A DNA stretch of 64,000 bases from Massalongia carnosa (lineage: Eukaryota), in contig OZ287074.1 of assembly GCA_965645245.1 (NCBI GenBank), positions 248,001-312,000 on the forward strand, read 5' to 3'. Made by a program: the position numbers and the translations under genes. Shown here piece by piece: positions 8,010-56,180 of this stretch (the stretch's first letter is position 1; each line of letters opens with the position of its first letter). Under the pieces are notes generated by a model. It was not told the origin of the DNA and searched no databases. It was given only the letters and a program-made list of their open reading frames with translations.

Positions 8010-11000
8010 TTGATTATACAATAGTGTAGATGCCATTGAGAATTGGGCCAGTAGACCTGTTTTCATTAGTCAAGCAGTTAATATCTTTAGCATTTTTGAT
8101 GTTTCGGTTAGCTGTTGATAGTTGTTCGTGCCAGCGGCGCGAAACATCTGTTCTCTATTGTCAATAAGTCTACAGAACATGATTACGTGTTCTGGAGTTT
8201 GTCTGTGCCAGCCTCATGAGCAGGCCGGTGAGGTGACGGCGGGACCCGTCGCTGGTAGAGGAAGTCAGCTAGACCGATCTTACCGGTGCAGATCTGTGTT
8301 GTCAGGGCGCTTTCTGCCTTTTTTAGCAGCGTGTGTATTTTGAGTCGTTTTTTGCTCAGTGAGACTGATTGCGGTATGGAGGGTGGGTTCGGTGACACGA
8401 TTTTGATATGCGCTCCACGAGTCGTTCCAGACTTTCAGCTGTCGTGCTTTAATTGTCTGCATTTGTTTTTAACGAGCCAACGCTGCTACGGAGACTTCGC
8501 GGAGATGCGCTGGGGAGGGGTCGGGCCATGGTGGGTGTGCTTTGGGTGGTTGAACGATTTTTGCGTCGATCAGTAGGTTTTTGGCCCAGGTGTTCTTCAG
8601 CTCTCCCGGAGTGGATTTTTGAAGGCGTTTACCCTTCGATTGACCTCCGGCTCGGAGTCGATGTCTGGCCTGCGCCTGTAACGTGTCGAGGTGTACATCT
8701 ATGGGTGCTATGTATGTCTCTGCTTCAAGAACTGGAATGGGAGTGGCTTTAAAGGCACCGGTTATGATGCGAAGGCAGTTGTTCTGCATAACGGAGAGCT
8801 TACTCGTTGACGTTTTTGACTTTTTGACTTCTTTGGGCATGTGCCATACGGTTGACCCGTATGTCATGACCGGACGCACTACGGCGCTGTAAACTTGCCT
8901 TGCTTTGGTGAAGGTGGCACCCCAGGTCGATGTGGAGATTTTTGTCAATGCCATGGATTGTTCGACCATTTTCTTTTGAGTTTTGCGAACGTGCGGCCCC
9001 CATTTCAATTTGGTGTCAATTTGTAAGCCTAAGACTCTAATGTCCGTTTTAGGTTCAATTTCGGTGCTTTTGCAATGTTGATGAATGCAGCCATATTGAA
9101 TCTTTTGGGATTTCTGGACAAGTGAATGAGTTCGTACTTCGTCGGGGCGAATAGGGATCCGTGTCGAGAAGCCCACTTTTCGCATTGTCTGTGTGTTGAC
9201 TCCAGAGACTTGCAATTCTCTTCGGTGCTTTTTCCGTATGCCAAAATGTTGGCATCTTCTACAAATCCTATGACACTTGTGTTTGTGCCTGATCGCTCGC
9301 ATATTCCAATAGGTCTGCATTATAGAATAGATAAAGAATGAATGAGAAAGGGGAGCCCTGTGGTATGCCAGTTCTCACCGCGAATCGTCCGATCGCTTTT
9401 CGATTTATAGCTAGAGTTGTGCTACGATCATTTAAAAAGCTGTTTAATCAATCAGTAATTCATTTCGGGATTTTTCTTTTACGTAGATTGTGCGTTAGTC
9501 TTTGATGTGAAACTGTATCAAACGCGCCGGCGACGTCCATGCTTAAAAGTGTGGCTACTTTATCTTTTCCTTGTCCTCAAATCGTGTGAACCTGTTCGGT
9601 TAGTAACTTCAGAGCTGATTCTGTAGATCTGTCCTTTCTCGCTCCCATGTGTGTCGGGTAGGAGCCGATGTTTTTCCGCTAAATAAGTTATTTTTGATCC
9701 TATGATAGATTCCATTGCTTTGCTGAGCGTGTTGAGTAATGCAATTGATCGGTAAGCCTTCGGCGTGGTGTACTTTGCTTTTTCTATTTTTCTTAATATT
9801 ATCATGTTTGCCATTTTGAAGGCTCGGGGATGGTACGAAAGTGTAACGCACGCCTGAAACAGAGGTGTTAATAATTCAACAAGTTTTTCCGCGCATGTCT
9901 TGAGTACTCTATTAGATATGCCGTCAGGACCCGGTGCTTTATCGGGCTTGAGCCGATGCAGGGCCTTGGACACTTCTGACCTGGTGATAATCATTGGACA
10001 GTGCGGCGATGCTAGATAGAAGGATCCTTCTATATCGCTTAAGTCGGCCGGTGGTGGTGCGGGAAAGAAAATGCTTTTCAGCATTTCGGCTTTCTCATCG
10101 AACGTGTCTGCTGTTTGATTATTGAACTTCAAAGTCGGCATTTTGGGTACTGTGTGACTTTTGTCTTTGGCCCATTTCGCTAGCCGCCACAGAACCCTGA
10201 GGCGTTTCGGTAGCCTTACTGATCTCTTGACGAAAATTTGTCCTCTTTGCTTTTTGGATAATTTTCTGTTTCTTGTTATTAGATTGACCAGTCCGCTAGA
10301 TCTCGTGTGTCAGACCATATACGGCGTAATTTTCGTGTGGCTTTGGTGGCAATATTGCATTCTTCTGTCCAGAAAGGCTTAGCATATTCGCTAGGTTTCG
10401 CCCATGGGACGGCTGCATTGATGACATTTTATAGGAAGTTTTGAATCGATTCTGTGTATGTATCGATCTCGACAGGTGTGCGGGGAGACGCCGGTGAAGG
10501 TGTGTGGCGCTCGGCTTCCCTTAATTTTTCCAAATTCAGAAGTTTCCATGCCCTGCGTTTACTTTTTGGTTGCGACTCGCTACCGAGTAGGATGCGGGTT
10601 GATATCGGTACGTGATCGGACGATTGATTTAATTCTGGTCTGGTCATGCAGTGTTCAAGTCTTTCAACTAGATGTTCTGACATGAAAACTAGATCGATCG
10701 TGCTAAACGTGTTTCTTGCTTCCCATGTTACGGTGCCTTTCGGCAATGTTAGCGAGAGATTGAATTCATCGATGATTTCTAACAATTGATCAGCTGCAGC
10801 ATGTTGTGTAGGTCTTGAAGGACCGTTCCAAAATGGATGATGCAGATTGAAATCACCAAGCAGGATATGATGCACGCCTTCGGTTAGCATGCTCCGAGCG
10901 GTCGATAAAGTAGAAGGGCTATCAGTGGACGAATAGGAGGCAGGAGAGGGATTGTATACGTTGTGTATATGGATCACCTCCACTACGCCTTCGGTGCATG

Positions 11001-11298
11001 TTTCTATTTTTAGCGTGCACATGTCGGCCGAGGGAAATTCTACTTCCCAGCTGTCAGTGCCTATTGAATCGTTGATGTAGAAGCACACTCTGGTGTCGCC
11101 TCCTGGGCGGTATAGAAGGTGAAAGCCACTTTGATGTGAACTGAGCGATGTGGGGGCGGATGGGTTGCACCACGGTTCCTGTATTGCAATGATATCATAG
11201 TCCTGGGTGTTTGTGTCTGCTAAGAGGGGTATCATAGTACTCACTCTATCATTTCTGACATTATACTGCAATATCGAGAGGGATTTTGTGTCTCTCAT
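8010..11298 (-). pseudogene. LINE ORF2 (APE endonuclease + reverse transcriptase), fragmented
   Basis: ILQYNV, IIAIQEPW, LLGDFNLHH, STIDL and SDH (APE); KAPGPDGI, YRSIALLNTL and IRVLGLQID (RT); C-terminal RQTPEHVIMFC knuckle. Many stops and frameshifts; the lower bound is approximate. Confidence 0.88.
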
Positions 11299-11543
11299 AG
11301 GATTTCCATGGTTTCGACCACTGTGACTGGGGTGGCCTGGGTGCCTGTCGTTACTACGGATTCTGCGCGGGGTCTACCTAGCGCTGGTTTTGCTAAGGCT
11401 TTGATCATGTTTTCAGGATTCATAATGCCTATATTAGCCCAGGTTGATACTTGCTCTCCTCGGGGAGAGCCCGGTGATGAGTCGGCTGAGAGCCCCGCGT
11501 TGTGCATTTTTCTTTTCTTGCCGTTCACAATCTTCCACGTTGA

Positions 11544-12865
11544 AGACTTCGATAAGAGTCCTGGGAGTATACATTGACACTAGACTCGATTGGGCAGCGC
11601 ATTACAAGGAAATTCAGAAGAAAATGACGAGACAAACAATGGCACTGACCAAAATCGCAGCCTCAACCTGGGGGGCGACCCTCCTACGAGCCCGCCACGT
11701 GTACACAGCAGTGATACGCCCCGCCATGTCGCACGGCTCGATAGCATGGCACATGCCAGCCGAAGCAAGAAAGAAAGCCAAAGTCGAATCAAGAAGCAAA
11801 CTCGAAGTCATACAAAACAAGTGTTTACGAGTCATAGCCGGAGCGTACAAGGCTACCCCAATTGAAGTATTACAGGCAGAAACCCACATCCCTCCCTTAA
11901 CGCAACATCTAGACCGCTTACAAGCAAAAACGAGATCCAGAATCTCGAACAGCGAACAGGAAAAAATTATAAAGCAGGCGTGCAATAGAATTCAAGTGAA
12001 ACTCAGAGGTAAAAGAGGTCAATCGCGAGTCGCAGAGAAAACACCGGGAACTCGTAAACGAGAATGGGTAACAAAGATGACGAAAGACGCACCGAAAACA
12101 GTTAAACTGGATCAACCCTCTCCCCCTCCCTGGACAACGATCGACGAGGCACAGAAGAGACAACGCACAGCGCAAGTAACGACGCAGAACCAACGAGACG
12201 GGATAATAAAGAAGCACTTTGAGAATCAGTGGATCAACAAGTGGAAAGCATATCAAGCAAAACACACGTTATATCCCACGATCGCACAACAGGCGCCTAT
12301 ACACAGGAAAAGGCTTAACGCACACAAGTTACTAGACAAAGCGCAAAGTTCACTAGCAACACAGATAAGAACGGAAAAAATCGGACTGGCCAACTTTCTA
12401 TATCGGCGCAAGGTCCCAGGTGTGAACTCGGCGGCATGTCCCTGCGGAAGCCTCTTACAAACAGCCAAACATGTAATCATGTTCTGCAGACTGCACGAAC
12501 ACAGAACGCACATGCTACGAACGGCAGGCTCGTCAGACTACCGCAAGCTAATCACCGAACCCAAAGCTCTCAAAGTAGTAACCGCGTGGCTCATGCGCAC
12601 AGGTATTTTAACACAGTATTCCATTGCCACGCAACTGCTTGAACAGCAGCCGGGCAGTCTCTCTTCAGTTTGAAAAACAGGTATCGCAGATTTTCGAGAT
12701 ACAGGAATCAATCCGCGGGAGCGGCGAACCCCCGATGAAGCGGATACGCAGGAGTAGTTTTTCACCTTTGGGTTTTCTACTTATTACATAGCTTATATAG
12801 CATCTCCCGCATGGGCCGGCCTTCGGCCGGTGACACAACGGCGTAAGAATAATCAAATCAAATCA
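11544..12865 (+). mobile_element. 5'-truncated LINE of a second family (B), nested antisense in the host LINE ORF1
   Basis: 15-bp TSD AATCTTCCACGTTGA at 11529..11543 and 12866..12880; (AAATC)n tail. Uninterrupted RT-thumb/C-terminal frame to the stop at 12673 (IRVLGVYIDTRLDW...CPCGSLLQTAKHVIMFC). Confidence 0.93.
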
Positions 12866-13357: not shown

Positions 13358-14685
13358 CACGCGGGGGACAAAAAAAAAACTACACCAAAATTTAACCGGG
13401 TTCAACCCCCCACCAAAACACAAGCAATTTCCATACAATTTTGATGGGATAATCACCATTTCAACAACCAGTCATCCAATTCATTCAATCTATTCAATAA
13501 CCAGTCATTTTACCCTCACCATCCAAAACAGCTCTCAATCTATCTGGCATAGTAGACACCCGTTCATTGATAAATGCCTGGGAAACGTTCGCCCACCCCT
13601 CATAAATTAGCCCCTTGGTCGTATCATCATCCCAATGAGGATATTTTTTTAAATATTGCTTCGGGGCCTGCCAGCAATTTTCTATGGGGGCCAAATCAGG
13701 TGAACATGGACAGTTGAAATAGTGCTTCAGATCGTTGTTCTGCTTCCAAGTGCGTACAATGTTTGATTTGCCTGGTCCATGTCCAGAATCACCGTCTTCT
13801 TCTAAGACGAAATCGTGTTTTGCTTCAATCCAGGGCTTCACAATAGGCTCCAATATAGAGTCGATATAGACTCGTTGACTCATCTTTCCATTGGAGTTTC
13901 CAGGAACTCTGTAAAAGTAGATATCTGACTTGAAGTCATGACCTGCAGCAGCCCAACAGTGATGTCTCTTCTTGGCGGCCTCGTCTGGTTCATCTGCTTC
14001 TTGAATACAATCATGACAATAACGTTCACCTAATCTTCGTATGATGCGTAATTTGCCCTGAGGTCCCCATCCAAAGTGCACTTCGTCACTAAATCGAACT
14101 TGTTTCCAGTCTTCTGCATTTGGATATCTAGAAAGCATAGCATCTGACCACTTCATACGAAGCTTTCTTGTCTTCTCGTTCACCCATCCCTTTCTGCACG
14201 CAATGCATTTGTGATAATCCATGGTGCCCATGATTCGTTGAATGGTTTTGCCACTGCAGTCTAGGCCTACTTCGAAGCCCAATTGCTCCCATGTAAGAGC
14301 GCGCGCCTCCATACCTTCTTCTTCCAATAGCCGTTCCATTTCTCTAATCAATTTAGGCGTAACAATTTTGTGACGCGCACGAGCTTCAGAAACATCGGAA
14401 TTATTATGATGACGGCGTGATGAGGCTCCTTCACGCAGGTATGCATAGCCCCTCGTACGTTCCACATCAAATGTGCGAAAAACATCCTCTTTGTGATAAG
14501 AAATGCCTTGCTTTTCGCAAAATTCAACGGCTCCCTGAATTTTAGCTTTGGTAGGAGTCTCGATATGTTTAGAATTCATAATAATGATAATTATCCCATC
14601 AAAATCGTATGTAAATTGCTTGTGTTTTGGTGGGGAGTTGAGCCCGGTTAAATTTTGGTGTAGTTTTTTTTTTGTCCCCCGCGTG
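13358..14685 (-). mobile_element. Tc1/IS630-like DNA transposon, 1328 bp, ~100-bp TIRs
   Basis: TIRs 13358..13460 and 14583..14685 begin CACGCGGGGGACAAAA; flanked by the direct repeat CCAAG (13353..13357, 14686..14690). Confidence 0.93.
13494..14579 (-). CDS. Intact Tc1-like transposase (DD37E), 361 aa
   Basis: WKQVRFSDEVHF, LEEDGDSGHG and SPDLAPIENCW; 37 residues between the second D and the E; no stops. Confidence 0.92.
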   Translation of the reverse strand: MNSKHIETPTKAKIQGAVEFCEKQGISYHKEDVFRTFDVERTRGYAYLREGASSRRHHNNSDVSEARARHKIVTPKLIREMERLLEEEGMEARALTWEQLGFEVGLDCSGKTIQRIMGTMDYHKCIACRKGWVNEKTRKLRMKWSDAMLSRYPNAEDWKQVRFSDEVHFGWGPQGKLRIIRRLGERYCHDCIQEADEPDEAAKKRHHCWAAAGHDFKSDIYFYRVPGNSNGKMSQRVYIDSILEPIVKPWIEAKHDFVLEEDGDSGHGPGKSNIVRTWKQNNDLKHYFNCPCSPDLAPIENCWQAPKQYLKKYPHWDDDTTKGLIYEGWANVSQAFINERVSTMPDRLRAVLDGEGKMTGY

Positions 14686-15409
14686 CCAAGCTACTTTGAT
14701 GATCTTGAGGTCAGGATGCAGGCGTGCGTTGGCGGCCTGCAGGTACGCGATAGCAGTTGATTGATTGGCCACTTTGATGTTTTCCACCTTGATTCCATTT
14801 GCCCTTACGGTGAAGGTACGAGTATGCACCGCTGCGGAGGCGGCCATCATGCAAGTTCAGTCGGTCTTTTCCTGCAGGGTTTTCTTTGCCTTCAATGACT
14901 TCGTGTGAATCCTTATGTCGTCATTTAACAAGCGCGACACTCGTATTCCTTTCGCTTCATTTTGCAACGTTTCTACCAGCTCTTTGGTTGGCATCAGCTT
15001 TACTTTTTCTTTATCTGCATTCTTCGTTATGTGAACAGTGATTTCTCGCGCTTCCTTCGGTGTAGGTATTTTGTCCTTTGAAGTCGGTTGAGACTTGACA
15101 TTTTTGTTCATCACGACCTCGCCCCGTGGCGGCAGCGGCGTAGCTTTGAGAAGTTGTATCCTTCCGTTATATGCGTGTCAGTGTTTGTTGAATAGATTGT
15201 AGAGTGTCATTGAGGATGTTGGGCGCCTTTGCAACTTCGTCGTCGATCCACTCCTCGAATATTCAATGTTTCCGTTATTATATTATTATATTTAATTCTT
15301 TTTTCAATAATCTCGTTTCGTACAATATAAGTTTTTGATACTACGTCTCTAGTCATTAGTATGTAGTCACTGAGTATGACTGAAAAACAAGGTACCGCCA
15401 ATGAGGTTC

Positions 15410-17611: not shown

Positions 17612-19353
17612 ATGGCTTTCAGGCACCGCAGGGAGAAGAATACCTCCGATGAGACTGAAGATTCAGGGTACCACTCCGCGACTCAAGGTAGGCTATGCAT
17701 ACGCTCATGATTTCCTCGATTACTCTAGCTAATCTTCGTCAAGGGCGCGAGGAATTACTAGAGGAATATGTAACTAATAAAGACCGATTTCGCGTTTCTT
17801 CGAGTCCCGTTGTACCAATGCCGCCATTTGAGAACATCATGAGGGGCGAAGATTGGTTGGCAGCCAAAGCACACTATCAAGCAATGAGCTTGGAAAGCCA
17901 GGTGCTAGATATATTAGGCAGACATGGTATCCCATGGATCTCCTGCGGTCTCCGGCGCCAGGTCAGAATCCTAACCAAAGATCGCATCCAGATGGACATT
18001 TTGCGTATTGGCACCAACAATGAAGCCGTATCCCTTTGGAAAGCAGCAACCGTCGAAATATGCAGCTTTTTAGAGGCGCGAAGCCGTCTACAGAACGTGG
18101 TAGTGGAGATATCCAACGACAAGCATTCGAAATCCAGAACCTCGTACACAATTGGTCATGATCCTCTGATCCTTAGTACACTACACCAGCTCAAACCGAA
18201 AATTCTTGAAGAACTAGACTCGAGTGTTGGGCTAGCGTGGACCTCTCTAGCATTTCATAGACGAAGCGCGAAGGGAAACCAATCGGAAGAGGCAAGGGTG
18301 CCAACTATGATGCTTTACTGTCAACCAGAGTCCTCATATGGCTTTACAGCCTTGGAAGCGCGACTATACCGGATACTGGATGCTTCCAAGCTTTCGCTAT
18401 ATCTCGAGATACTTCCAGGTATCATCATCTCAGGCGCCGACACCCATCCTTCGTCTTCCAGTCCCGCAGCAGCGCCCCTGCAAGGTGATATTCGAAATGG
18501 CGCCAGCATAGGAATCAAGGGAGATGGGGAGCGAGCAGGCTCTTTAGGGTTCTGGGCGTGGGCCCATCTCCCCGGACGCCATGAACCCCAGAAAGTGGCC
18601 TGCACGGCTTTTCATGTTGTGATTGACAGCAATGTCGACCTGAAAGAGCTGACCATGGCAGAGGGCGTGACCTTGGAGAACAAAGATGCGTTTGAGCGAG
18701 TTACCGTAGAAAGTCCCGCGTATACCGACAAGGTTAGGAATATCCTTGAGCTAGAGAAGGCTGTGCAGGCCAGGTATGATCCGCACTTGGTGAATAAGCT
18801 AGCGACTGCAAGACAGCAGATGGTTTCAGAGGACTCAACAATCGGCAAGGTCGTTATGGCGTCTGGAGTCCGACTGAACAAGTCCCGCCGCCGTATGGAT
18901 TGGGCCTTATTCACCACTCCGACCGCCTTCCAACAGAATCATGTGCCGTCCCCTACTTTATTCATCATGAGACAAGAGCGCCCATTGAACTATGACTTCG
19001 AGGAACAATTTGTAATGTCGAAATTCGGGGAAATCCAGAACGGAGATTGGGTCACGAAGAACGGGCGCACGACGGGAACTACAGCCGGGTATGTCAACCA
19101 GATGGAACGAATCGTGTTCTGGCCAGAGTACAACATGACATCAAGCGAAATCGAAGTGGTCGGTCTAGCGGCTGCTTTTGCAGAACGGGGAGACTCGGGA
19201 TCGGCGGTGATCAACATGCACGGAGAACTCATTGGCATTGTGATCGCCATGGAGATGAACTCAACGAGCGAACATTCGGGAATCGTCACGTCGATTGGAG
19301 ATCTATTGAGAGATCTCGGGGAGCGAGAGGGAGTGACGCTAAGGTTGCCATAG
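17612..19353 (+). CDS. Trypsin-like serine protease domain protein (peptidase S64/Nal1-like), no signal peptide
   Basis: Exon 1 17612..17687, in-frame intron 17688..17743. Motifs GASIG...AGSLG, TAFHVV (His), MDWALF (Asp), KNGRTTGTTAG and GDSGS (Ser). Confidence 0.8.
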
Positions 19354-29231: not shown

Positions 29232-30079
29232 GGCCTCTCGCGGGAATTATGACGGTCAATCGGCTTAATGGCGCAAAAAATCCAGAAAAGCTGCTGCTTG
29301 TGTGGTGAAGTTGCCATGATGAGAGTCAAGCCGGAAAGGAGGCACAGCCTCTAAGCTCATCACCAACAGTCTTTAGAAGATATTAAAGGATCCGATACCC
29401 TATCCACGCGACGTATGCCACCTATGCAACCGGCGGCGAATGGGAGCTGACCCTTATGGGGACTAGATAGGGGCTAAGCCAAAGGGGGATTAACTTATGC
29501 TGGCTGAAACGTAGATCTTATCTAGTCATATCTCTAGTGAACGCTTCTTTACTCTGTTGGCTGATAGATTATCCAACATCGCAAGGCGAACCGAGCCAAG
29601 CGATATACAACTAGATGCATGGACTCAAATATATAAACTCCTAGAGCGCTAAATATTTTCACTCCCGTCTTGACGACTTCTTTATCGTCTTGAATCATTA
29701 ATTTAGATTCTTATTGCTTTTCAAATACTTTCTCTGACATTTATATTAGTTCAAATTATGTACATGATTATACACAAACAGAATTATTGAAAGCGCTGTT
29801 GGGGAAAAATTAAAGAATTTCGTAAGACTTCAAAAGAAACGCGACTCAGTCGATCGATAGGAAAATATCACGACGAGATGTTCATCTTTCTTCATCAATC
29901 TAGATATGTTTACTCCATTCTCCCGGAAAACCCGTTTCATTGGATGACTATATCTTGCAGTCGTCAGCTGCAACGGTGTCTTTCCATCCAAGTTTCGTGC
30001 CTGACTGTTTGCTCCATATTTGAGTAGTAATTGCACCACGGCTCGATAATTATTTCGGGCGGCAGTATGCAATGCCGTG

Positions 30080-30296
30080 ATCGGTCCTCCTCCTTCTACA
30101 CCATCGGTCCTCCTCCTTCTACACCATCGGTCCTCCTCCTTCTACACCATCGGTCCTCCTCCTTCTACACCATCGGTCCTCCTCCTTCTACACCATCGGT
30201 CCTCCTCCTTCTACACCATCGGTCCTCCTCCTTCTACACCATCGGTCCTCCTCCTTCTACACCATCGGTCCTCCCCCTTCTACACCATCGGTCCTC
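30080..30296. repeat. 23-bp tandem repeat ATCGGTCCTCCTCCTTCTACACC, 9 full copies plus a partial copy
   Basis: Unit starts at 30080, 30103, 30126 ... 30287. Confidence 0.97.
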
Positions 30297-30734
30297 ACCA
30301 CGGAGACGCCAAAGGCCTCACCGTGGGGCGACCGTCAAACATAGATTTGCTCCCATCTCTTCGCATCAAAACAATGCTAATTTAACGCGTTCACACGCGT
30401 CGCAGACGTACGTACGGAAGAGGATTCGAAGGCCAACCGCCGGAGGGTCGCATGCGCGCGTCCCTGCACCATGCTTCTAAGGGTTCAAGTCCCTTTATGC
30501 AGTCATCAGCTGGAAGAAGATGTGGACAAAAGGAGCCGCATCACCCCCCACCCGGGCACAGTCGACACGTGTTCTAGCTCCTGAGAGTTCAAGTCTCCCC
30601 ATGCAGTCATCAGCTGGAATCAACAGAACGCGGACAGGCACCGGGGCGAAGCCACCTCAAGAAAACTCCATCACGGAGCGGAATAACAATATCTCATTTA
30701 ACAGGCCCGGCCTGTTAAATAAAATCGAGGAAAA

Positions 30735-30850
30735 CACAGAGTCACAGAACACATAGTCATAAATCACACAGTCACAAAGCACACAGTTACAAAGCACAGT
30801 CACAAAGCACGCAATCACAAAGCACACAGTCATAAAGCACACAGTCACAG
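30735..30850. repeat. Degenerate ~15-bp tandem repeat (CACAGTCACAAAGCA), about 8 copies
   Basis: Directly visible in the sequence. Confidence 0.85.
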
Positions 30851-31990
30851 ATCAATAACATGTCCCTGTGAAGGGGGTTCTGCGGGGGCTCGTTAAGGCA
30901 GATCTGCACCCCGTTAATATCGGAGTACATATTTTTAGAGGTTCAAGTCCTTTCTAGCAGTCATCAGCTGAAAATAATGCATTTTGACAAGGGCATGGTG
31001 TGGATTTGACACGGGTAGACCTCGATGGATCACAAAACGAATGAAAAGAGTTCAGCGGAACTTAGTTAATATTGTTCTCGAAGATCTCGTTAATAAGATT
31101 TTCATAGACCTCGTTAACAACGTTCGATCATACTCTTAAAGGTTCAAGTCCTTTCATGCAGTCATCGGCTCAGAGCTAGAGACGTATGACACGGGTCAGC
31201 TATGTCTATCACACGGGTCTCCTTCGTCTACAACACGGAGCCCTCCGGCTGAAAGAAATAAAACATATATACACATAGTGTGGGGTCACACCCTGCACGA
31301 TACAAGGGATTTGGGTTATGAAAACCATCCGACTGATGGCTACCGTGAGCAACACGGCCCGAACCGGGGTCGCACCGGGGATGGTGGAGGCAACCTAGTC
31401 ATCAAATAGGACACCTTTGGGACAAGAAGAGGGCAATATACGAGGAACCCGTTAATTGATAACAGTCTAGGCCCTGAGCTAATAGACGAATTTCAAACGA
31501 GCACCCCTCCGAGTTGTCCTCGACTCGTTTTGGTTAGTAGGGACGGAAAATCGGTACTATACTGCTTGGTCAGGAGCATAGTGGCCGAAATCCCCGCGAG
31601 ACATGGTCGGTTCATAAACGGGAGACCTTTATGAATAACGCGAAGTGGGCGTAACAAACCCATGAGGCGTGGTATGCAATGGCGGCCACCGTACGGAAAC
31701 CCTCTGCATAGCCCGAGAGGACAGTATGCGCATGTCGGTGTATATAGAGCAGGGAATGTCTATCTCGCTCGTAACGAGACCCGTCGGTTCGCCGGCGCTG
31801 GGGCTACGGCTAGACTCGCCCTTGATATATGCTTGAGGAGTAAACTGGGTTTGGCCTAGGCGAAAGGGACGTCGTTCACCCCAATCGTAGAATTCATCAA
31901 TAGTCTTGGGCCGTAAAACGCACCAGTGAGATGAACAAAAACTCGGATAGAGACTTCACGAAGGAGATGTCAGCTCTATTTTATCATTCT

Positions 31991-34211
31991 TAGCCACACT
32001 TTTAAGCATGGACGTCGCCGGCGCCTTTGATACAGTTTTGTCACGGTTCAACCACATCCACCCAAGGCCAATCAAAGGAAAGTACGGCATCTGCCGGCGC
32101 ACTAACCGCTTCCGTTACTCAACCCTTTTAGCAATCATAGGGGCAATGAACGGAGGTCTGAAAGGACTGAAATGGACGCATCGGAACGACCTTCTAAAGC
32201 AAACACAAATGGGGACAAAGAGCAGAAAGACTGTTTGACCAAACTGTTCACTTATTGATGAAGACACAAGCAGCTGGATCGGGCCAAGCGATTATCTATA
32301 TAGATTCCTAGAGAGGGCACCCTTTGCTTGTTTCCTTTCTGCATCTTTGATATTTTCTAGTGCATAGCTTCCCAGTAGGTAGTCAATTCCACATCCTGGT
32401 TGAACCGTCACACGTTTCACATCAAAGACTAACGCACAATCTACGTAAAGAAAAATCCCGAAATGGATTACTGATTGGTTAAACAGCTTTTTAAATGATC
32501 GTAGCACAACTCTAGCTATAAATCGAAAAGCGACCGGATGATTCGCGGTGAGAACTGGCATACCACAGGGCTCCACTCTCTCATCCATCCTTTATCTATT
32601 CTATAATGCAGACCTATTGGAAATATGTGAGCGACCAGGCACAAACACAAGTGCCATAGGATTTGTAGACGATGCCAACATTTTGGCATACGGAAAAAGC
32701 ACCGAAGAGAATTACAAGACTCTGGAGTCAATACACAGACAATGCGAAAAGTGGGCTTCCCGACACGGATCTCTATTCGCTCCGACGAAGTACGAACTCA
32801 TTCACTTGTCTAGAAATCCCAAAAGATTCAATATGGCTGCATCTATCAACATTGCAAGCACCGAAATTGAACCAAAAACGGACATTAGAGTCTTAGGCTT
32901 GCAAATTGACACCAAATTGAAATGGGAACCGCACGTTCGCAAAACGCAAAAGAAAATGGTTAAACAATCCATGGCATTGACAAAAATCTCCACATCGACT
33001 TGGGGTGCCACCTTCACCAAAGCAAGGCAAGTTTACAGCGCCGTAGTGCGTCCGGTCATGACATACGGGTCAACCGTATGGCACATGCCCAAAGAAGTCA
33101 AAAAGTCAAAAACGTCAACGAGCAAGCTCTCCGTTATGCAAAACAACTGCCTTCGCATCATAGCCGGTGCCTTTAAAGCCACTCCCATTCCAGTTCTTGA
33201 AGCAGAGACATACATAGCACCCATAGATGTACACCTCGACACCCTACAGGCGCAGGCCAGACATCGACTCCGAGCCGGAGGTCAATCAAAGGTCATTTCT
33301 TCCGCATGCAGCAAAATAGTTAACAAACTCCGAGGCAAGGCAGGTCGCAAACGCCTTCAAAAACCACTCCGGGAGAGCTGAAGCACACCTGGGCCAAAAA
33401 CCTACTGATCGACGCAAAAATCGTTCAACCACCCAAAGCACACCCACCATAGTCCGACCCCTCCCCAGCGCATCTCCGCGAAGTCTCCGTAGCACCGTTG
33501 GCTCGTCAAAAACAAATGCAGACAATTAAAGCACGACAGCTGAAAGTCTGGAACGACTCGTGGAGCGCATATCAAAATCGCGTCACCGAACCTTCCATAG
33601 CCCAATCAGTCCCACTGAGCAAAAAACGACTGAAAATACACACGCTGCTAAAAAAGGCAGAAAGCGCCCTGACAACACAGATCTGCACCGGTAAGATCGG
33701 TCTAGCTGACTTCCTCTACCAGCGACGGGTCCCCGCCGTCACCTCACCGGCCTGCTCATGTGGCTGGCACAGACAAACTCCAGAACACGTAATTATGTTC
33801 TGTAGACTTATTGACAATAAATAACAGATATTTCGCGCCGCTGGCACGAACAACTATCAACAGCTGACCGAAACATCAAAAACTCTAAAGATATTAACTA
33901 CTTGGCTAATGAAAACAGGTCTACTGACCCAATTCTCACTGGCATCTACACTATTGTACAATTAACAGTAGCTTCACTTCTCTTTTCCTTCTTATCTCAC
34001 AAGGCGTCACAGTTCTCACATGATTTTCGCTCTGCGTCTCCTGTCCGACGTCGACCCGGTGTCACATCGGACAGGTATCAAGGGATATGGTTTTTACACC
34101 TGAAAAAGGTTTTCCATGTAACATAACTTAGATAGCTTTGCCCGCATGGGCCGGCCTACGGCCGGTGACATATCGGAGTATGAATACATCGTCATCATTA
34201 TCATCATCATC
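31991..34211 (+). mobile_element. LINE family A 3' portion (RT to 3' tail), degenerate
   Basis: LLSMDVAGAFD, GIPQGSTLS, GFVDDA, CSCGWHRQTPEHVIMFC; highly similar to the reverse complement of 7779..9557. Confidence 0.92.
32039..32412. mobile_element. Probable solo LTR (374 bp) inserted in the LINE RT
   Basis: TG...CA ends with terminal inverted repeat TGTCACGGTTCAACCA / TGGTTGAACCGTCACA; 5-bp TSD AGTTT/CGTTT. The other LINE copy reads GATACAGTTTCACATC uninterrupted. Confidence 0.8.
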
Positions 34212-34239
34212 ATGCAATGCCGTCTCTCGATCTCGATCT

Positions 34240-36080
34240 TTCGCGTGCACATCAACCCCTTTTTCTAATAACAGCTATACTATTTGTCCCGATCCTCTCT
34301 TGGCTGAAAGGAAAAGCGCGTCATTTCCAAGGTCATCTTTTGCTTTGCTGTCTGCCCCATTTTCTAGTAACAGCTTCGTTATGGTTTCGTATCCGTATCT
34401 GGCTGCACATAGAAGTGGTGTTTTTCCTCCACGACCTCGAGTTTCTATATCTGCCCCTTTTTCTAATAACAGCTGTACTATTTGTCGCGAGCTACCCCTG
34501 GCTGAAAGGAAAAGCGCGTCATTTCCATCGTCATCTTTTGCTTTGATGTCTGCCCCCTTTTCTAGTAACAGCTTCACCGTGGGTTCGTCTATGAGTTTGA
34601 CTGCAAGAAGAAGTGGTGTTATTCCTCTGTAACCTCGAGTTTCTATGTCTGCCCCTTTTTCTAGTAACAGCTGTACTTTTTCTGCCACTTTTTCTGCCAC
34701 TTTTTGTCTCGATCGTGTCTTGATTGAAAAAGAAAGCGCTTCTTCTCCACAGTTATCTTTTGCTTTGATGTCTGCCCCCTTTTCTAGTAACAGCTTCACC
34801 GTGGGTTCGTCTCCGAGATAGGCTGCAATAAGAAGTGGTGTTCTTCCTTCGGGACCTCGAGTTTCTATGTCTGCCCCTTTTTCTAATAATAGCTGTACTA
34901 TTTGTCCCGATCTTCTCCCGGCTGAAAGAAAAAGCGCGTCATTTCCATCGTCATCTTTTGCTTTGATGTCTGCCCCCTTTCCTAGTAACAGCTTCACCAT
35001 GGGTTCGTCTCCGTAACAGGCTGCATATAGAAGTGGTGTTTTTCCTTTGTGACCTCGAGTTTCTATGTCTACCCCTTTTTCTAATAACAGCTGTACTATT
35101 TGTCCCGATCCTCTCATGACTGAAAGAAAAAGCGCGTCTTTTCCATCGTCATCTTTTGCTTTGATGTCTGCCCCCTTTTCTAGTAACAGCTTAATCATGG
35201 TTTCGTCTCCGTGATTGGCTACATATAGAAGTGGTGTTTTTCCTCCGCGACCTCGAGTTTCTATGTCTGCCCCTTTTTCTAATAACAGCTGTATTATTTG
35301 TCGCGATCTACTCCAGGTTGAAAGGCAAAGCGCGTCATTTCCAGCGTCATCTTTTGCTTTGATGTCTGCCCCCTTTTCTAGTAACAGCTTCACCGTGGGT
35401 TCGTCTCCGAGATAGGCTGCAATAAGAAGTGGTGTTCTTCCTTCGGGACCTCGAGTTTCTATGTCTGCCCCTTTTTCTAATAATAGCTGTACTATTTGTC
35501 CCGATCTTCTCCCGGCTGAAAGAAAAAGCGCGTCATTTCCATCGTCATCTTTTGCTTTGATGTCTGCCCCCTTTTCTAGTAACAGCTTCATCATAGTTTC
35601 GTCTCCGTAATTGGCTGCATATAGAAGTGGTGTTTTTCCTCCGTGACCTCGAGTTTCTATGTCTGCCCCTTTTTCTAATAACAGCTGTACTATTTGTCCC
35701 GATCCTCTCCTGACTGAAAAGAAAAGCGCGTCATTTCCATCGTGATCTTTTGCTTTGATGTCTGCCCCCTTTTCTAGTAACAGCTTCATCATGATTTCGT
35801 CTCCGTATCTGGCTGCAAGTAGAAGTGGTGTTTTTCCTCCGTGACCTCGAGTTTCTATGTCTGCCCCTTTTTCTAATAACAGCTGTATTATTTGTCGCGA
35901 TCTACTCCAGGTTGAAAGGCAAAGCGCGTCATTTCCAGCGTCATCTTTTGCTTTGATGTCTGCCCCCTTTTCTAGTAACAGCTTCATCATGGTTCGGTCT
36001 CCGTAATTGGCTGCATATAGAAGTGGTGTTTTTCCTCCGCGACCTCGAGTTTCTATGTCTGCCCCTTTTTCTAATAACAG
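34240..36080 (-). repeat. 198-bp (two-ankyrin) coding tandem repeat, 9 units
   Basis: Near-identical DNA units; a block at about 34801..34980 recurs at +594 bp. Confidence 0.93.
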
Positions 36081-36986
36081 CTGCACGATGGGCGTGTGGC
36101 CATGTTTTACAGCATAATGCAACGCCAAGTTTCCATCGCTATCAACGGACATCGCGTTGACCCCCGAATCAAGACATAACCGTACCAGGTCTTCATATCC
36201 CTTCATTGAGGCCAGATGCAGTATTGTTTTTGCATCTTCAGATTTTGTTGCAACGTCAGCCCCCTGTTCTAACAACAGCCTCACCATTAAGGTGTTTCCT
36301 TTTTCTGCCGCTATTAGCAACTGGTTTTGTCCCATAGAGTTTTCATGCTGTTTTAATGACTCCCGGAACAACAACGTTTGAGTTTCATCTTGCTTTAGTT
36401 GTTTTTCATCTGCATTTCGCATATCGTGCGAAGCGCACATATGTTTTTGCAAATTATCCTTTCGCCAGGTCCGGAATTTACAGCTGGGCCATTTGCAATA
36501 GAATCTTGACTTGATGACTGTGTGACTAACTTTGTGACGATTAAGATCGCTGCGGAGTGCAAAGCCTCGACTGCACTCATCGCACTTGTGTGGCTTCGTG
36601 TGTGTTTTGCGATGGCGCCTGCGACAAGACAGGTCAATGTAATGATTATATGATAGCAGGTGGAGATATACGTATAATCCCCGCGCCTTGTATATTTCTT
36701 AGAACAGAATTCACATGTAATTAGTCCTCTCACTTGGGAGGACTGGCTATTCATATCCGCATTTACGCCTCTGAAACAAGAGAGTGGTATTTCCGTAGGA
36801 CTGAGTGTGGAATAACTTTCAAATCATAAAATGGAAGATGATAAAAAAGCGAAGATAACTAGCTATCTTCTTTGTCTCAAGTAACTATTTTATATTTCGA
36901 GGTCACCTTGTACAAAAATTCGTCCAGCTAGAGTGTTGGGCAGTCTTAATGCCCTTTCATCCCAGCCTTGACGGGCAAGTGGGTGC

Positions 36987-37042
36987 AAGGCGCACGGCGT
37001 AAGGCGCACGGCGCAAAGCGCACGGCGTAAGGCGTACGGCGT
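36987..37042. repeat. 14-bp tandem repeat AAGGCGCACGGCGT x4 in a divergent intergenic region
   Basis: Units at 36987, 37001, 37015 and 37029. Confidence 0.9.
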
Positions 37043-37191
37043 AGGGGGGGTAGAGTTAGGTACTCTACACTTAGGAGACGACTTCCCCCATCCAAACCCT
37101 CCGTCTTTCAAGGAAGATATTCCCAAGTCAAGGCCAATTCTATCCTTTCCAATTCTCGCCGATTCATCGCCCTCTCTGAATCACGTCAATT

Positions 37192-37911
37192 ATGTCGAAG
37201 CGCAACGATGACAACGTTCCTGACCAATGCGAAAAGCACCATACGCCATCCGAAACACTCTCTGATGCTTTCAGAGACAATACCCAATGGACGCAGGACA
37301 TGGATTCCTTGCTGTGAGTGGGTTTTTTTTTAACGCTAATGCGAGTATGCCTTTTCAGTGGACATACTCTCATGAATAATTACTTCGATAACGCATACTA
37401 CGGCTCTTTTCCGGTAGGGCCTGCACCCTCTTACAGCGATGATGACATCCCCAATTATGGTGTGCAATCCGATGCCACTCTTCAGGATTATCCCATCGGC
37501 GATAATGGTTTGGATGGTTTGGATGGTTTCATATCGCCGTACAATCTATCAATTCCTATCAGCAGCACAGTCTACACTGCGGCTCCGAACGATTTCGCCA
37601 CAACTTCCACGAACATCACCACGGCTTCTGTAGTCAACACTATAGCCCCAGCAATCATTGCTGCTAACACTAATGCCAACACCAATGCCAACATCAATGC
37701 TAATAACAACACTAACCGCCATCGGTGTCGTCATCATGGATGTATCACAACCTTCAGCCGGCGTGCCGACGTTACACGCCACATGAAAACGCATTCTCAG
37801 CCACAACTTAACTGCCCCGTCAGCGGTTGTGACCGCCAGGGAGACAAGGGTTTCAGTCGCCTGGACAATCTTCGCAATCACCAGCGGAAGAAGCACGGAA
37901 TGGCAGTCTAG
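37192..37911 (+). CDS. Small C2H2 zinc finger protein (2 C-terminal fingers)
   Basis: Exon 1 37192..37313, intron 37314..37358; CRHHGC..FSRRADVTRHMKTH and CPVSGC..FSRLDNLRNHQRKKH. Confidence 0.8.
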
Positions 37912-50557: not shown

Positions 50558-53500
50558 CTACAGTTCATCCTCGGTCACCAGGCTATAACCTGGCTTCCCT
50601 GGCCTCACACGGGTCCTCATCTCTTCGGTCACAAACGTGGCTCCTTGTCTCGTGATGCCTAAGCCTGTCGCTCTCTTCTTCGCCTCCACCGACGCAAGAA
50701 TTGCCTTAGCCTTTTCCAGTTCCGTTTTATTTCCATGCGCCTTATGATACGCTCGCGCTGTTATTCGGCCAGAAGAAGGCGGGAGAGGATCTGGTGGCGC
50801 TTTACTACTGACATTTACGACAGGTGTAACGCGTCGGCCGTGAGAGTCGCTCAGGTAGTCGGAGGCTTCAGCATCTGTGTACAAGGTTAGTGGTGGCATC
50901 TCGACGGAACAGGCAGTTGGTTACCCGATGGATTTGTAGAAGGGCCGTCCCCAAACTCCCATGCATATTGACCAACATGCTTCCTCTCCATGTGCCTCTC
51001 CCATGCCTCCTCAGAAGCAAACTCAAGCGGCTCAAGTTCCTCGTCGTCATCTCTTTCATCCGTCGAGCCCTTAATCATACCGCAGTCTACCCACAGGCAA
51101 GGAAAGGGACCATCAGTGAACTCCTGGCGATGCTTACGGACGTGCTTCCGGAGCGTTTCAAGGTTGTGAAGCTCGTATGGACAGTTTTTCCACAGACATT
51201 TATATATCTTATGGCTTGGTGTGGATGGCTGCATGCTAGACTTTTCTCTCCTTTTTGACTCTTTAGAAACGCTCTTTTGCTTCTTCTCAACAACAGGAAT
51301 GCTTGAAGAACGCGGATTGATCACTATGGCAAATCCATCTGACGGCGTCATGGCGTTTCTAAGTCCGCTAGGCCTCAAAGGGACTGTATCCGAAGAGCGA
51401 GGGTGTGGAGGAATTGCTCTTTGGCTGCCCCTTGATCTCTCTGTATTAGGGCTGTTTTTGAAATTAAGAGGACGGCCTCTTCGCTTTTGCTGTGAGGCGC
51501 CTGGATTTGTTTCTTGAGGCGTAGCGCTGCTCTGAGCTGTCTCTTGAGGCAGAGAGGTGGTTTTTGCTACTTGTTGAAGCAGAGGGCCTGAATGAAAGCC
51601 TTTCCCATGTTGTTTTTCCCCCGAACCACGTGGACGGCCACGAGGAGAGTTGGACACTGAACCCAACGTAGCGATAGGTAGACTAGCCGTAGCAGTTCCA
51701 GGTTCAGGACTTCGGACAAAACTCATAGAGTTACCTTCAGCCACATCTTGCTGGACTGATTCTTCGTCGTTTTGATTAAAAAGTACAACTGTGCCTTGGT
51801 GGGGGTCCATGAGTGTAGAATTATCCAGAGGTTTCTGGCTACCATTGCGCTGGGCACCCTCTAACACCCTGCGGGATGGAAATCCCTTCATAGGCTGAGA
51901 AACATTGCTACCTAGTGGCAATATTAGCATGTTTATCCCAATCGCATCCCAGAATGTATTATCACCTAAGGTTACGACTCCTTCTGCCCCTTCAGCTGTG
52001 ACTGCCATTTGCATTCGTTGGCGATCATCAGCCCCAATATTAATATCTTCATCATCTGCATCATTCATATCAACGTCTAGAGCTGCTATATCACTCACAT
52101 CTGGGCCACCTGGATCTACAAGGTCCCATCGGAAGGTGCCAAGGTCAGAATGGTGATCGACATAAGCAAATCTTCGGCGAAGAATATCGAGATGATGGTT
52201 TAAAGGTGCCATTGTAGGATGTTTGCTTGAGGAGACGAGAATATCCCGAGCTATTGTCCTGGGATTATAGGTGGAACGGCGGAGAGCATCATTCCTCTTA
52301 TCCATTGGGCGGACAATGATACTTGATTGTAATAAATCCTGCTGCGATTGTCTGTACTTGAACTTCGACAAATCAAGGCCTTCATCCTCTGTAGTTGCCG
52401 ATGAGCTCAAGCCTAATCGGTCTTTAATTCCCAGTACGTTCTTAGGATATTTTTTCTTCTCGCGTAGGGCTGGATCGATGGTTTTGGCGGTTGGCCTATC
52501 AGAAACTGCACCTGGAGCGGACAACGAAGAGGTAGAACTTGCTACTGCATCATCTACACCGTGTATTACATTAAGCCGTGCTTTCAGCTGCTGAATCTTG
52601 TCGTCTTCGTCTGACAAGTCTTGAGTAAGATCGACAAGCTCAGCAAAGCTCTTCTTCTTTGCCATTTCCTTCTTGGACGGTTGGGTAGGAATTGCAGGTC
52701 CTGATTCATTCAAACGATACTGATTGAAATTTGCGTTTCCGCCTTCAGCCATCGCGACACCCTGCGGAGTCCAATTGACATATCTTAATCCAGGACCCTC
52801 GGTTGTGGTAACCGCGGATTTTGAAATCTCTGGAAATCCGCCTTAAGTTAGCTGTAGTTTAAACACACCAAATATTCATCATACCCGCAGGAACTAGCAT
52901 TCCAAACCGAACAATCGAACCGTTCCCATCTTTGATTGAGTCTCTTGACTTTCTTACTGGCCGTTTCTTCACATGACTCTTGTCAATAGCGGTTTGTGGC
53001 TTCCCTATATATTGAGATCAGAAAAAAAAGTTAAATAACAAAGTATTGCGGAAAGTATTGACAATGTACCTTCTCCATAAACACCCGTAGTTCTGCCCTG
53101 GCTATTGACAACGGGAGCTAAGCTGTTCTGACTGTTGACCGGAAAGGGTTTGGGATTGTATGGACTAGGTGGGGGATTAGGAACATTCACTGTGCTAGAT
53201 TGTTGCTCTTCCGAATTAGTTGTGTTTAAGCTTGGAACAGCAGAGAGCAATAGGCGAGCGAAATGTCCTCGATCAATGATGAAGCCTCTGCGCTCAAGTA
53301 TCTCGCAGAGTTCAGCGTAGCTGGGACTCTGATCGAGGAGCCTTACTATCTCTCCTACGGAAATATTCTTGCCTGCGTTCATCGAGGTAGATATCAGAGC
53401 GTCTTGTGCCGCGAACGCCAAGGACCATTTCTTATCCTGAGGCCAGATCGTTCCACTTGACGGTTTCTCGGCCAGGGGAGCGGCCTTTGTTGGTTGGGAA

Positions 53501-55737
53501 GCGAGGAGTTCTGGACCTCTTACATACATTTCTTGCGAAGAGGGTCCAGCCTTGGGGTCGGCGTGCTTGCCGGGGCTCATGCTTCGATTGAAGGACTTTA
53601 TAGCTGTTTCCATGGACTGAGCCCCAGGAGCCGGAACCAAGGATTCATTTGTAGAGGTAATAACAGCTGGGCCTGCTGACGATGGATAAACCATAGGAGT
53701 CGCAACAGGCGTCACATTGTTATGGTCCAGTGTTTCACGGCGCGCTAAAGCTCTATTAGCAGGCTCTTTGTTGCTTTTCCGTCTACGCCGCAATGCAGGA
53801 TATTTCCCACGATCAAACTCGTTTCCAGGTAGTAGCTGTATAGAAAAGTCCGGCTCCAAAGGTAGTTGACTGTTTGTTGGATTAGGACTCGGTAGCTGAC
53901 CATTACCATTGGCCAGAGAGGTGATATTTCCTTTATTTTCCTCAACGTTCAAGGCATCTTTGACTGGGACTCGATTTGGGGGTTGTTCCTATTGAGCCAT
54001 CAGCTAAAATCCAAGATGGAAAGAGAAAACATAAAGATAAATCTAAAGAATTCAAATCAATGCAGCAAAAATTTACAGAAGAGGAATAGGGCATTCGACA
54101 AAGAACCCCATCACGAAATCTGATTATTTTTTAGGTTAATGCATCCTCAACTTAAATGCATGAAATCTCCAAGGTGATCAATAATTAATATTCATTTTAA
54201 TTCTCACCTTTTTCACTTGCTCCCAAATCTGCGAGAACAAAGTGGGGTCTTTGGCCTTATAGTCCCGCATTTTCTCGATCATTTGCTTCATCTCCGATTC
54301 CATCTGGTTTTTGGTGGCTGAATCCGAATCTGCGGGAGTCCCATTGACAGAGGTTTTGATTGCCATGTTCTTCGCTGTAGCCTCTTCTGTCGCCTTTTGA
54401 GCCTTTTCAGCTTTTGCGGCGGCAGCAGCAGCAGCCCTTTCAGCGGCCCGTTGTTTTTCAAAATTGGCATTGTCGAATATTTGATAGGGGTCAACGGTGG
54501 CGGGATAGTGCCTTTCGGGTTGTGGGGATTTCTCGTGGATGTTTCCACTTGCCCTATTGTCTAAAGCAGACGATCGAATATCAAAACGCGATCGGTCTTC
54601 CCGATGTGTATCTCCTGGCGTATTTTTTTGAATGTTTTGAGTGTTTTGAGCAGAGCCTAGGGCTGTGTTCGCTGTGGTTTGCTTCGTCTGCCTGAACTTG
54701 TTACTTGAAACCTTCTCCATGTTTCTAGAGTTCAAGGTTACAGGGGTTGGGATAACTTCGTATTGTTGAGCAGCTGGCGTTTGGTGCCAACTTTGTGAAT
54801 TAGAGGACGGTTGCGGTCGCGGTTGCTGCTGGGAGTATTCCCAAGCCTGAGCGCCATTGTTCATAGCTTCATTTGATACAGGCAGTGAATAGTTCGAGGA
54901 TGGAAGTATGCCTGGTGAATTGGTTCCCCGGGAGCTAAATCTCGCACGGGAAGCATAAACACCTTGACCGCTAGCTGGTCTGGGTGGATTGCTATACTGT
55001 AGAGCTGACGAGTTTGAAGCTCCTTGGTTAGGACCAGACGTTGGCTGAGGAAACCTGGAACTTTCATGACTTGAAACGTATTGCTGTGGCTGACGGCTAC
55101 CATGTGCATCTTGAGCGTATGTTGAATATGATGACCCATAAGAACTCTGGATTTCTGTAGGCCTAGCCTCGTCCCTTGTATTGACTGCTCCACGGCTGTC
55201 CGATCGGCGTAGATCATATCCATTTATCGAAACAGCAGTCATTCCATACACCGGGGACCCACTATAGTTACTGTTATTCCCAGAACGGTTATAGTCGACA
55301 ATATGCTGCATCATCGATCCATCCCTTGCAGCTGCAGCATGTGACCGAGAGTTTTGCCCAAGGCTTGACGCATATGCAAGATTACCCAATGCTGTAGTAT
55401 CAATTGAAGATCGTGAGTTGCTAGGATAATGACTCATCATAGTTGCGGTGCCATGGCCATGTGGCCTACCTCTTGCAATGTGATAACCTCTGCTACTTGT
55501 ATCTGACACCTCTACAGGTCTTGACATTGAATAGACAGTTGAGGATCGCTCAGCGGAGGTCTGAGCAGAGATGGACTGCTCCGATGCCGCGTTCGTATTC
55601 ATGGAAGAATATTTTTGCCGCTGATAACCGCCACTACTCGTACCAGCTGTGTCTTGGTAAGGTGGATGACTTCGTCCATCTTGCTCGGCACCAGATTGGA
55701 AGTGCGGTGAAAGATTGTTATAATCGTTGTATGACAT
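50558..55737 (-). CDS. Large conserved hypothetical protein, low-complexity N-terminus and C-terminal C2H2-like fingers (multi-exon)
   Basis: Consecutive long minus-strand ORFs with GT-AG junctions; DPTLFSQIWEQVKK, YNPRTIARDIL, YKCLWKNCPYELHNLETLRKHV. Confidence 0.8.
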
Positions 55738-56180
55738 ATCTAGCTCATACCGCAACACGACGACGCTGTGTTGCTCTAGCACTTGGTCTAAATTATTGTT
55801 GTCAAATTATGCTGAAAATGTAAAAATGGGTCAAGTTACCTGAAAACCTAAGCCGCGCCAATTTAATGAAGGTAAAGGTAAGGTGAGATTAGCGCGGAGA
55901 GCATATGTATCACACTTAGTACACCATCTGAGCTTTCCAGGAAGCAATCACGAAAGGCGCGTCCGGAAGATTCGACGAGTTACTTCAAATAACTGGAGCA
56001 CAGGTGGATCAAGCTAAGTTAACCCAGGTTGTATCAAGAGCCAATCAATCACTATATCGCCTACGTAACCACATATAGTCTAGCGTCGATATCTTCCGCA
56101 CACAACTTTAAAGATCTACCTTTGGGAAAGATATTGGTCGACAAAAACAATACACTGACCTTGCTGCGCTCATCGTCAAA

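Follow-up and report, generated by a model that had tools for sequence, protein, structure and literature searches.

We analyzed a window of 64,000 nucleotides from Massalongia carnosa (NCBI GenBank assembly GCA_965645245.1, contig OZ287074.1, positions 248,001 to 312,000 of the forward strand; positions below count from its first letter), whose minus strand carries a gene coupling three C2H2 zinc fingers to an extended array of ankyrin repeats. The gene starts at an ATG at 36754, the earliest one downstream of an in-frame stop, and continues through a predicted 53-bp intron into a single open frame ending at a TAG at 34277-34275, which together make one gene of 808 codons. Its product would comprise, in this order, three C2H2 fingers, a linker of ~32 residues, approximately three diverged ankyrin repeats and then nine units, each a pair of ankyrin repeats. 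Exon 1 (36672-36754) encodes the first half of finger 1, with its C-x2-C pair, and the predicted GT..AG intron (36619-36671) splits this finger; we predict it because its removal restores an exact C-x2-C-x12-H-x3-H in finger 1 and because the homologous frames described below start to align exactly at the junction. The second half of finger 1, finger 2 (C-x2-C-x12-H-x3-H) and finger 3 (C-x4-C-x12-H-x4-H) occupy 36426-36618, and were delineated by pattern and by matches to PDB sequences. They are followed by the linker (36330-36425), with a QDE..ESLK motif conserved across the family in alignment A1, by the diverged N-terminal ankyrin repeats (36081-36329, 83 residues), which are recognized by Pfam and colinear with the homologue P0222, and by the nine tandem 198-bp units, amounting to 18 ankyrin repeats with hypervariable binding-face codons (34275-36080). 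Finger 3 is merely ~32 residues away from the first ankyrin repeat, and fingers and repeats share an uninterrupted stop-to-stop frame (34275-36698).

All three fingers display the classical pattern C-x2-4-C-x12-H-x3-5-H with the conserved aromatic and hydrophobic positions, finger 1 doing so by way of the splice. Among PDB sequences the finger region matches ZNF568 (E=1.7e-29) and WT1 (E=5e-9, two fingers, single stretch 1-60), and an exhaustive search with it recovered 14,602 library matches. From the tandem fingers and the TGEKP-like linker (T-K-P-H-K-C) between them we infer that this module may bind DNA in a sequence-specific manner. A Pfam scan of the 780-residue exon-2 product recovered ankyrin families and weak finger models only, with no NACHT or NB-ARC domain, and these domains are likewise absent from the 28 window frames that we scanned, namely 27 of the 35 frames of 150 or more residues, the remainder being mainly antisense or overlapping, and an 82-residue displaced C-terminal piece (frames 32542-33381 and 37318-37911 were covered in a separate Pfam scan). 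The original prediction, made from the sequence before any search, of C2H2 fingers fused to ankyrin repeats in a protein devoid of NACHT/NB-ARC is borne out by these results.

Tandem Repeats Finder located a 198-bp period at 34256-34681 and 34725-36083 with 85-90% matches, and the minus-strand frame reads as nine in-register units of 66 codons, the number originally predicted: units 1-3 at 36080-35883, 35882-35685 and 35684-35487; units 4-6 at 35486-35289, 35288-35091 and 35090-34893; and units 7-9 at 34892-34671 (222 bp), 34670-34473 and 34472-34275. Each unit consists of two ankyrin repeats of different type, which at the 33-residue period are 36% identical to each other. Between units the DNA is 81-95.5% identical (mean 88.7%) and the protein 65-91% (mean 76.5%). 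High internal conservation (HIC) has been defined as at least 85% identity over at least 100 residues, or a T-REKS Psim of at least 0.7 (Dyrka 2014; Ament-Velasquez 2026); our units show an identity to their consensus of 0.69-0.98 (mean 0.84 over 594 residues), which lies above 0.7 and is borderline for 0.85, a value that is an identity measure and not the T-REKS Psim. The only length variant arises from a 12-bp unit repeated 2.6 times (34675-34705), which adds 24 bp (8 residues) in frame to unit 7, within helix 2 of its second repeat; the insertion is modelled with low confidence as a lengthened helix 2 and is probably harmless.

Variation among the units is concentrated at unit positions 22-26 (YAANY, LAARY, IAAYL, YVANH, YAACY, LAVKL, CAARY) and 56-60 (STWSR, SVRRG, SAGRR, SVMRG, SIKTR, SARGS, SAKRG), every one of the peptide variants listed in the original prediction being present in the units; the first repeat type additionally varies at positions 10 and 18-20, and the second at 9, 12 and 15. 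Pairwise Nei-Gojobori comparison gave proportions of non-synonymous and synonymous differences of 0.131 (pN) and 0.060 (pS), respectively. When minimal events were counted by taking each distinct codon state once (a parsimony count with no likelihood site model), at least 64 non-synonymous events stood against 9 synonymous ones where 23.4% silent events were expected, corresponding to a ratio of non-synonymous to synonymous rates (omega) of 2.2 (binomial p=0.0135). No amino-acid change is seen in 34 of 65 codons, and the changes are clustered (permutation p=0.00015). We further defined the ankyrin binding face a priori as positions 2, 3, 5, 13, 14 and 33 of both repeats (12 codons), which we take to be the set used in DARPin (designed ankyrin repeat protein) design, assuming the same numbering register. 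These 12 codons account for 30 of the 64 non-synonymous events (binomial p=2e-7), against 5.8 expected from the silent rate and 11 at its upper 97.5% bound, and omega is 6.4 on the face and 1.4 off it. Evenly spread variation, one of the possibilities against which the original prediction had been set, does not describe these counts. Repeat-induced point mutation (RIP) was considered as a source of the variation and rejected, with 70 transitions to 55 transversions and a (CpA+TpG)/(ApC+GpT) index of 1.12, read against thresholds that we take to be the usual ones.

An AlphaFold model of three units built with an alignment (pLDDT, the predicted local distance difference test, 96; pTM, the predicted template modelling score, 0.90) places the variable sites in helix 1, in the loop preceding it and where helix 2 starts, and the modelled array superposes on DARPins with a template modelling score (TM-score) of 0.94. 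A single-sequence model was poor (pLDDT 52), its best part being the diverged N-terminal repeats. PMC4986451 places positively selected sites of Podospora NOD-like receptor (NLR; NOD, nucleotide-binding oligomerization domain) ankyrin repeats on the same surface, and PMC4308713 describes a designed ankyrin library randomized at positions 2, 3, 5, 10 and 13 (and 33).

The array is also a mosaic at the DNA level. An exact block of 226 bp is shared by 34755-34980 and 35349-35574 and another of 144 bp by 35249-35392 and 35843-35986, both at an offset of 594 bp or three units, and the half-units adjoining these blocks are strongly divergent. This arrangement points to unequal crossing-over or conversion of cassettes, of which it is the expected product, and a similar shuffling mosaic is described for HIC receptor repeats (PMC4986451, PMC13449251).

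The array ends in damage. The last codon of unit 9 is TAG, whereas it is CAG in every other unit; this single change sits in a RIP-like context, although one event proves nothing. Beyond the TAG an in-frame 51-bp remnant of the next, diverged ankyrin repeat (34224-34274, minus strand) leads up to a 4,133-bp insertion (30079-34211, plus strand), which is recognized by its RVT_1 match and a second copy elsewhere in the window and is flanked by a perfect 12-bp target-site duplication (gene-proximal copy at 34212-34223, distal copy at 30067-30078). On its far side, ~4 kb from the array, lies the displaced C-terminus (29830-30066, minus strand; Pfam Ank, E=4.9e-8), whose 78 codons (30066-29833) comprise the rest of the interrupted repeat, one further repeat and a short tail before a TGA at 29832-29830; it begins at ankyrin profile position 4, exactly where the upstream remnant stops. 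As the gene resumes in frame beyond the insertion, the ancestral protein extended C-terminally by two further diverged repeats. Together, the TAG and the insertion cost ~100 codons, and the damage looks recent, as the 51-bp remnant and the 78-codon displaced piece both show no decay. Hence, this copy represents either a young pseudogene or a truncated allele. The inactivation by a stop and an insertion that had been proposed earlier therefore needs restating: the TAG and the 24-bp insertion are both real, but the latter is in frame, and it is the larger 4.1-kb insertion, lying just beyond the stretch described at that time, that cuts off the C-terminus. Inactivation itself is plausible given this loss but unproven, as the 808-codon frame is still open.

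To place the gene among its relatives we relied on several kinds of search. With the whole protein as query, the best 120 matches were ankyrin proteins (26-49% identity), none with a C2H2 family, and a profile search with alignment A1 likewise gave no C2H2 family in its best 120, which were dominated by ankyrin proteins. A word-based search with the finger region returned 13 matches, of which 12 are animal poly-finger proteins and one an unrelated ankyrin protein. An exhaustive search with a 100-residue finger-linker piece, dominated by poly-finger proteins, contained among the 150 matches listed at least three colinear relatives matching over a single stretch: P0222 (310 residues), P0245 (156 residues) and P0270 (119 residues). 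All three are metagenomic fragments, 52-54% identical over the matched stretch (45-51% to P0001 in alignment A1), and run colinear with the studied gene from finger 1b through finger 3 and the linker into the first ankyrin repeats; upstream, their frames part from that of the gene exactly at the intron position. P0222 has about five ordinary, diverged repeats and no amplified unit. Since three relatives have the same order and P0222 ordinary repeats, the fusion is ancestral to the family and the amplification lineage-specific. A lead towards ANKZF1 (Atlas values of 0.77-0.80, below 0.9, the rest being ankyrin clusters) was rejected, as the Pfam scan contains no VLRF1 domain.

Taken together, these observations probably describe a small, uncharacterized eukaryotic and probably fungal family of finger-linker-ankyrin proteins, in one member of which a two-ankyrin cassette was amplified, homogenized by recombination and diversified on its binding face, before this copy was recently broken. 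Under this interpretation the cassette would have been tandemly amplified to nine copies in the studied lineage, unequal recombination or conversion would have kept the units alike, as the exact blocks at three-unit offset suggest, and diversification would have acted at the hairpin-loop and helix-1 positions forming the ankyrin binding groove. The regime would be that of the HIC sensor arrays of fungal NLRs, but with a nucleic-acid-binding type of module in place of a NOD and an effector. The array might thus offer a variable partner a binding surface that can be re-tuned rapidly, with the fingers tethering it to DNA or RNA; the domain types and the evolutionary regime are what suggest such a union of variable binder and nucleic-acid-binding module. 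The last ~100 codons, including two repeats, would then have been lost through the CAG-to-TAG change and a retrotransposition that generated the 12-bp duplication.

Several points weigh against this interpretation. The gene is broken, and its intron and the transcript joining fingers to array are predictions from the sequence. The finger models score below the curated Pfam cut-offs (zf-H2C2_2, 23.6 bits against 40; C2CH-3rd_BIRD-IDD, 23.8 against 27), although short finger models commonly miss their cut-offs when only two or three fingers are present. The silent baseline consists of just 9 synonymous events, recombination between units breaks the independence that event counts assume, and the off-face omega of ~1.4 fits neutrality. 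By a Poisson estimate based on the silent rate, ~41 of 65 codons would stay unchanged by chance, a number that the 34 observed do not exceed; the data therefore do not demonstrate purifying selection on the scaffold. Since scaffold invariance is within chance at such low divergence, the signal is the excess of amino-acid changes at the face and not conservation of the scaffold. The earlier description of the units as conserved yet hypervariable, an NLR-like pattern with its hot spots in hairpin loop and helix 1, is supported as a pattern. Moreover, the variable positions are those of highest entropy in ankyrin repeats generally (PMC4308713), and because of this the location of the changes alone is no proof of adaptive diversification.

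These same points bear on a reading in which the gene is an ordinary scaffold, that is, a recent expansion of a finger-ankyrin adaptor with fixed partners, whose variability reflects relaxed surface constraint and drift in a dying or dead gene. The truncation, the near-neutral off-face ratio with its few silent events, the coincidence with generally variable ankyrin positions and the ordinary, non-repetitive repeats of P0222 are all compatible with it. We nevertheless consider it rather unlikely, as pure decay would spread changes evenly whereas those observed are clustered, as whole-unit and face omega both exceed one, with more face events than even the upper bound of the silent expectation, and as no stop or frameshift occurs among the 73 events (p=0.016).

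A second alternative takes the array to be derived from an NLR, having been captured from a NACHT-ankyrin gene by rearrangement in a transposon-rich region and joined to a zinc-finger gene. Among the best 120 matches to the array 43 carry NPHP3_N, GPIID_WHD or NACHT, these matches share a consensus of the type LLLEKGADIEAKD, and transposons abound in the left half of the window. Yet the array is no closer to NLR arrays, with 40-51% identity, than to P0222, and three independent homologues have the same finger-linker-ankyrin order, with first repeats that align; a scan of P0001 and of the 28 window frames revealed no NACHT remnant. An ancestral fusion with lineage-specific amplification argues against a recent capture from an NLR, and we regard such a chimera as very unlikely.

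The repeat number itself rests on the assembly, as no short-read contig spans more than ~314 bp of the array, and this too has to be set against the amplification that we favor, as does the fact that runs X1 and X3 come from one study of one organism and are not independent. Contigs of X3 match 34162-34329 and 34300-34456, including the insertion junction and the TAG, without difference, while those of X4 and X5 leave 34184-34255 uncovered, their pieces at 34255/34256 deriving from internal units. That the nine units were mis-assembled from fewer or dispersed ones, which short-read contigs unable to span 1.8 kb of 198-bp repeats might allow, is extremely unlikely, as the units are individually distinguished by their combinations of variants and keep a consistent frame, contigs of two runs reproduce 34162-34479 exactly and the three-unit higher-order structure is coherent.

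The amplified and face-diversified finger-ankyrin protein can be compared with several known systems. It is not a fungal NLR: there is no NACHT/NB-ARC, and the N-terminus consists of three C2H2 fingers in place of a HET, HeLo, PNP_UDP or sesB effector. Its array nonetheless resembles the HIC ankyrin arrays of NLRs in 1) near-identical tandem units, 2) a hypervariable hairpin loop and inner helix on the concave face, 3) an excess of amino-acid changes, 4) signs of repeat shuffling, and 5) the frequent pseudogenization and association with transposons. It differs from them in its three fingers, in the absence of NACHT/NB-ARC and of any death or effector domain, and in a conserved period of two repeats (66 residues) of types that are 36% identical. 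Thus, the array resembles an NLR sensor array in evolutionary regime, and HIC arrays outside NLRs are already known as a class. PMC4986451 attributes 60-70% of HIC repeats in Dikarya to NLR-like proteins, and PMC13449251 reports HIC in 5.59% of repeat proteins that lack an ATPase domain, compared with 22% of those that have it, so that the uniqueness implied by the original prediction is weakened. In Sordariales, 34 NLRs contain C2H2 fingers, in each case alongside a NOD (PMC12258605). In the literature on the pairing of C2H2 fingers and ankyrin repeats that we searched, supplementary tables lying outside the search, we found no description of an HIC, positively selected array joined directly to C2H2 fingers. 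The same pair of domains is found in the annotation of a filamentous ascomycete, which was not among the word-based matches; we know of no repeat conservation or function for that protein.

The array is 47-48% identical to DARPins and ANK-N5C (PDB 4O60/4QFV, PMC4308713), with model TM-scores up to 0.94, and shares with them a fixed framework with variation at positions 2, 3, 5, 10 and 13 (and 14), but it is natural, alternates two repeat types and also varies at the start of helix 2 (18-20). ANKZF1/Vms1 similarly combines a zinc-finger module with an ankyrin domain in one polypeptide, but has the VLRF1 domain that is absent here. A nucleic-acid-binding module and an ankyrin domain also share one polypeptide in NF-kB p105/p100 and in Swi6/Mbp1, and the ankyrin part of p105 gates its DNA-binding part. 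The DNA-binding folds of these proteins and of ANKZF1/Vms1 are unrelated to that considered here, and none has an amplified hypervariable array.

HIC hypervariable arrays are treated as the sensor hallmark of fungal NLRs, while the minority lacking an ATPase domain is uncharacterized. This locus offers a concrete and analyzable case of the HIC regime wired to zinc fingers, with relatives whose ordinary repeats mark the amplification as recent, and its broken state agrees with what is described for HIC receptor genes, namely high turnover and an association with transposons. Should intact alleles exist, they could tell whether HIC diversification needs a NOD and whether a variable binder can feed a nucleic-acid-binding output. 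One might go further and envisage a NOD-less, one-component recognition system, of the kind originally suggested, in which the shuffled, positively selected array captures a variable non-self molecule or partner and the C2H2 fingers change transcription. We hold this to be quite improbable; if true, plant NLRs carrying integrated WRKY domains, or the gating of NF-kB p105, would have a counterpart in fungi, and the HIC diversification engine would serve receptors outside the STAND (signal transduction ATPases with numerous domains) architecture.

The 4,133-bp insertion shows the features of a non-LTR (non-long-terminal-repeat) retrotransposon: a reverse transcriptase, the 12-bp duplication, a simple 3' tail and other copies. 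Its 3' ~1.8 kb is the recognizable retrotransposon part, with RVT_1 at 32542-33381 (E=6.7e-8) and an ATC-rich simple tail at the end; a second copy at 7774-9516 shares 94-95% identity with this part, and the 3' end of the element is at very high copy in runs X1 and X3. All three frames of the insertion are broken, and the endonuclease part was not found in the inserted copy. The 5' ~2.3 kb is unclassified, with no match to the other element copy or to a Pfam family. Directly beside the target-site duplication, the insertion begins at its 5' end with a nearly perfect tandem of 9.4 copies of a 23-bp unit (30080-30296); a 15-bp unit repeated eight times lies deeper within it (30731-30849). The second copy of the element is longer (7774-12700, minus strand) and includes an Exo_endo_phos/endonuclease-reverse transcriptase frame at 10432-11373. 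A group of DNA transposon remnants, one frame each of Tc5/pogo type (DDE_1 and HTH_Tnp_Tc5), of a MULE (Mutator-like element) transposase and of Tc1/mariner type (DDE_3), lies at 1929-4896 and 13497-14690.

Divergently oriented and 438 bp upstream of the studied gene lies a further gene (37193-37911, plus strand), whose small product has two C2H2 fingers at its C-terminus as well as a low-complexity tract rich in N and T. This product weakly matches fingers 2-3 of the studied gene with E=0.003 over 56 residues, including a common DNL-x2-H motif; a match of this extent does not establish paralogy. Between the two zinc-finger genes a G+C-rich 14-bp unit is repeated 4.1 times (36985-37043), which may represent a promoter element or a microsatellite. 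Three long frames at 50890-55806 on the minus strand (651, 327 and 542 residues) have no Pfam match at E<=0.001. A 553-residue frame at 17692-19350 on the plus strand ends in a C-terminal trypsin-like/Peptidase_S64 region (E=9e-9), its only recognized domain. To the right of the transposon-rich half, the window is occupied by housekeeping genes, including those for PRMT5, a DEAH helicase, ribosomal protein L26 and a Zn2Cys6 factor.

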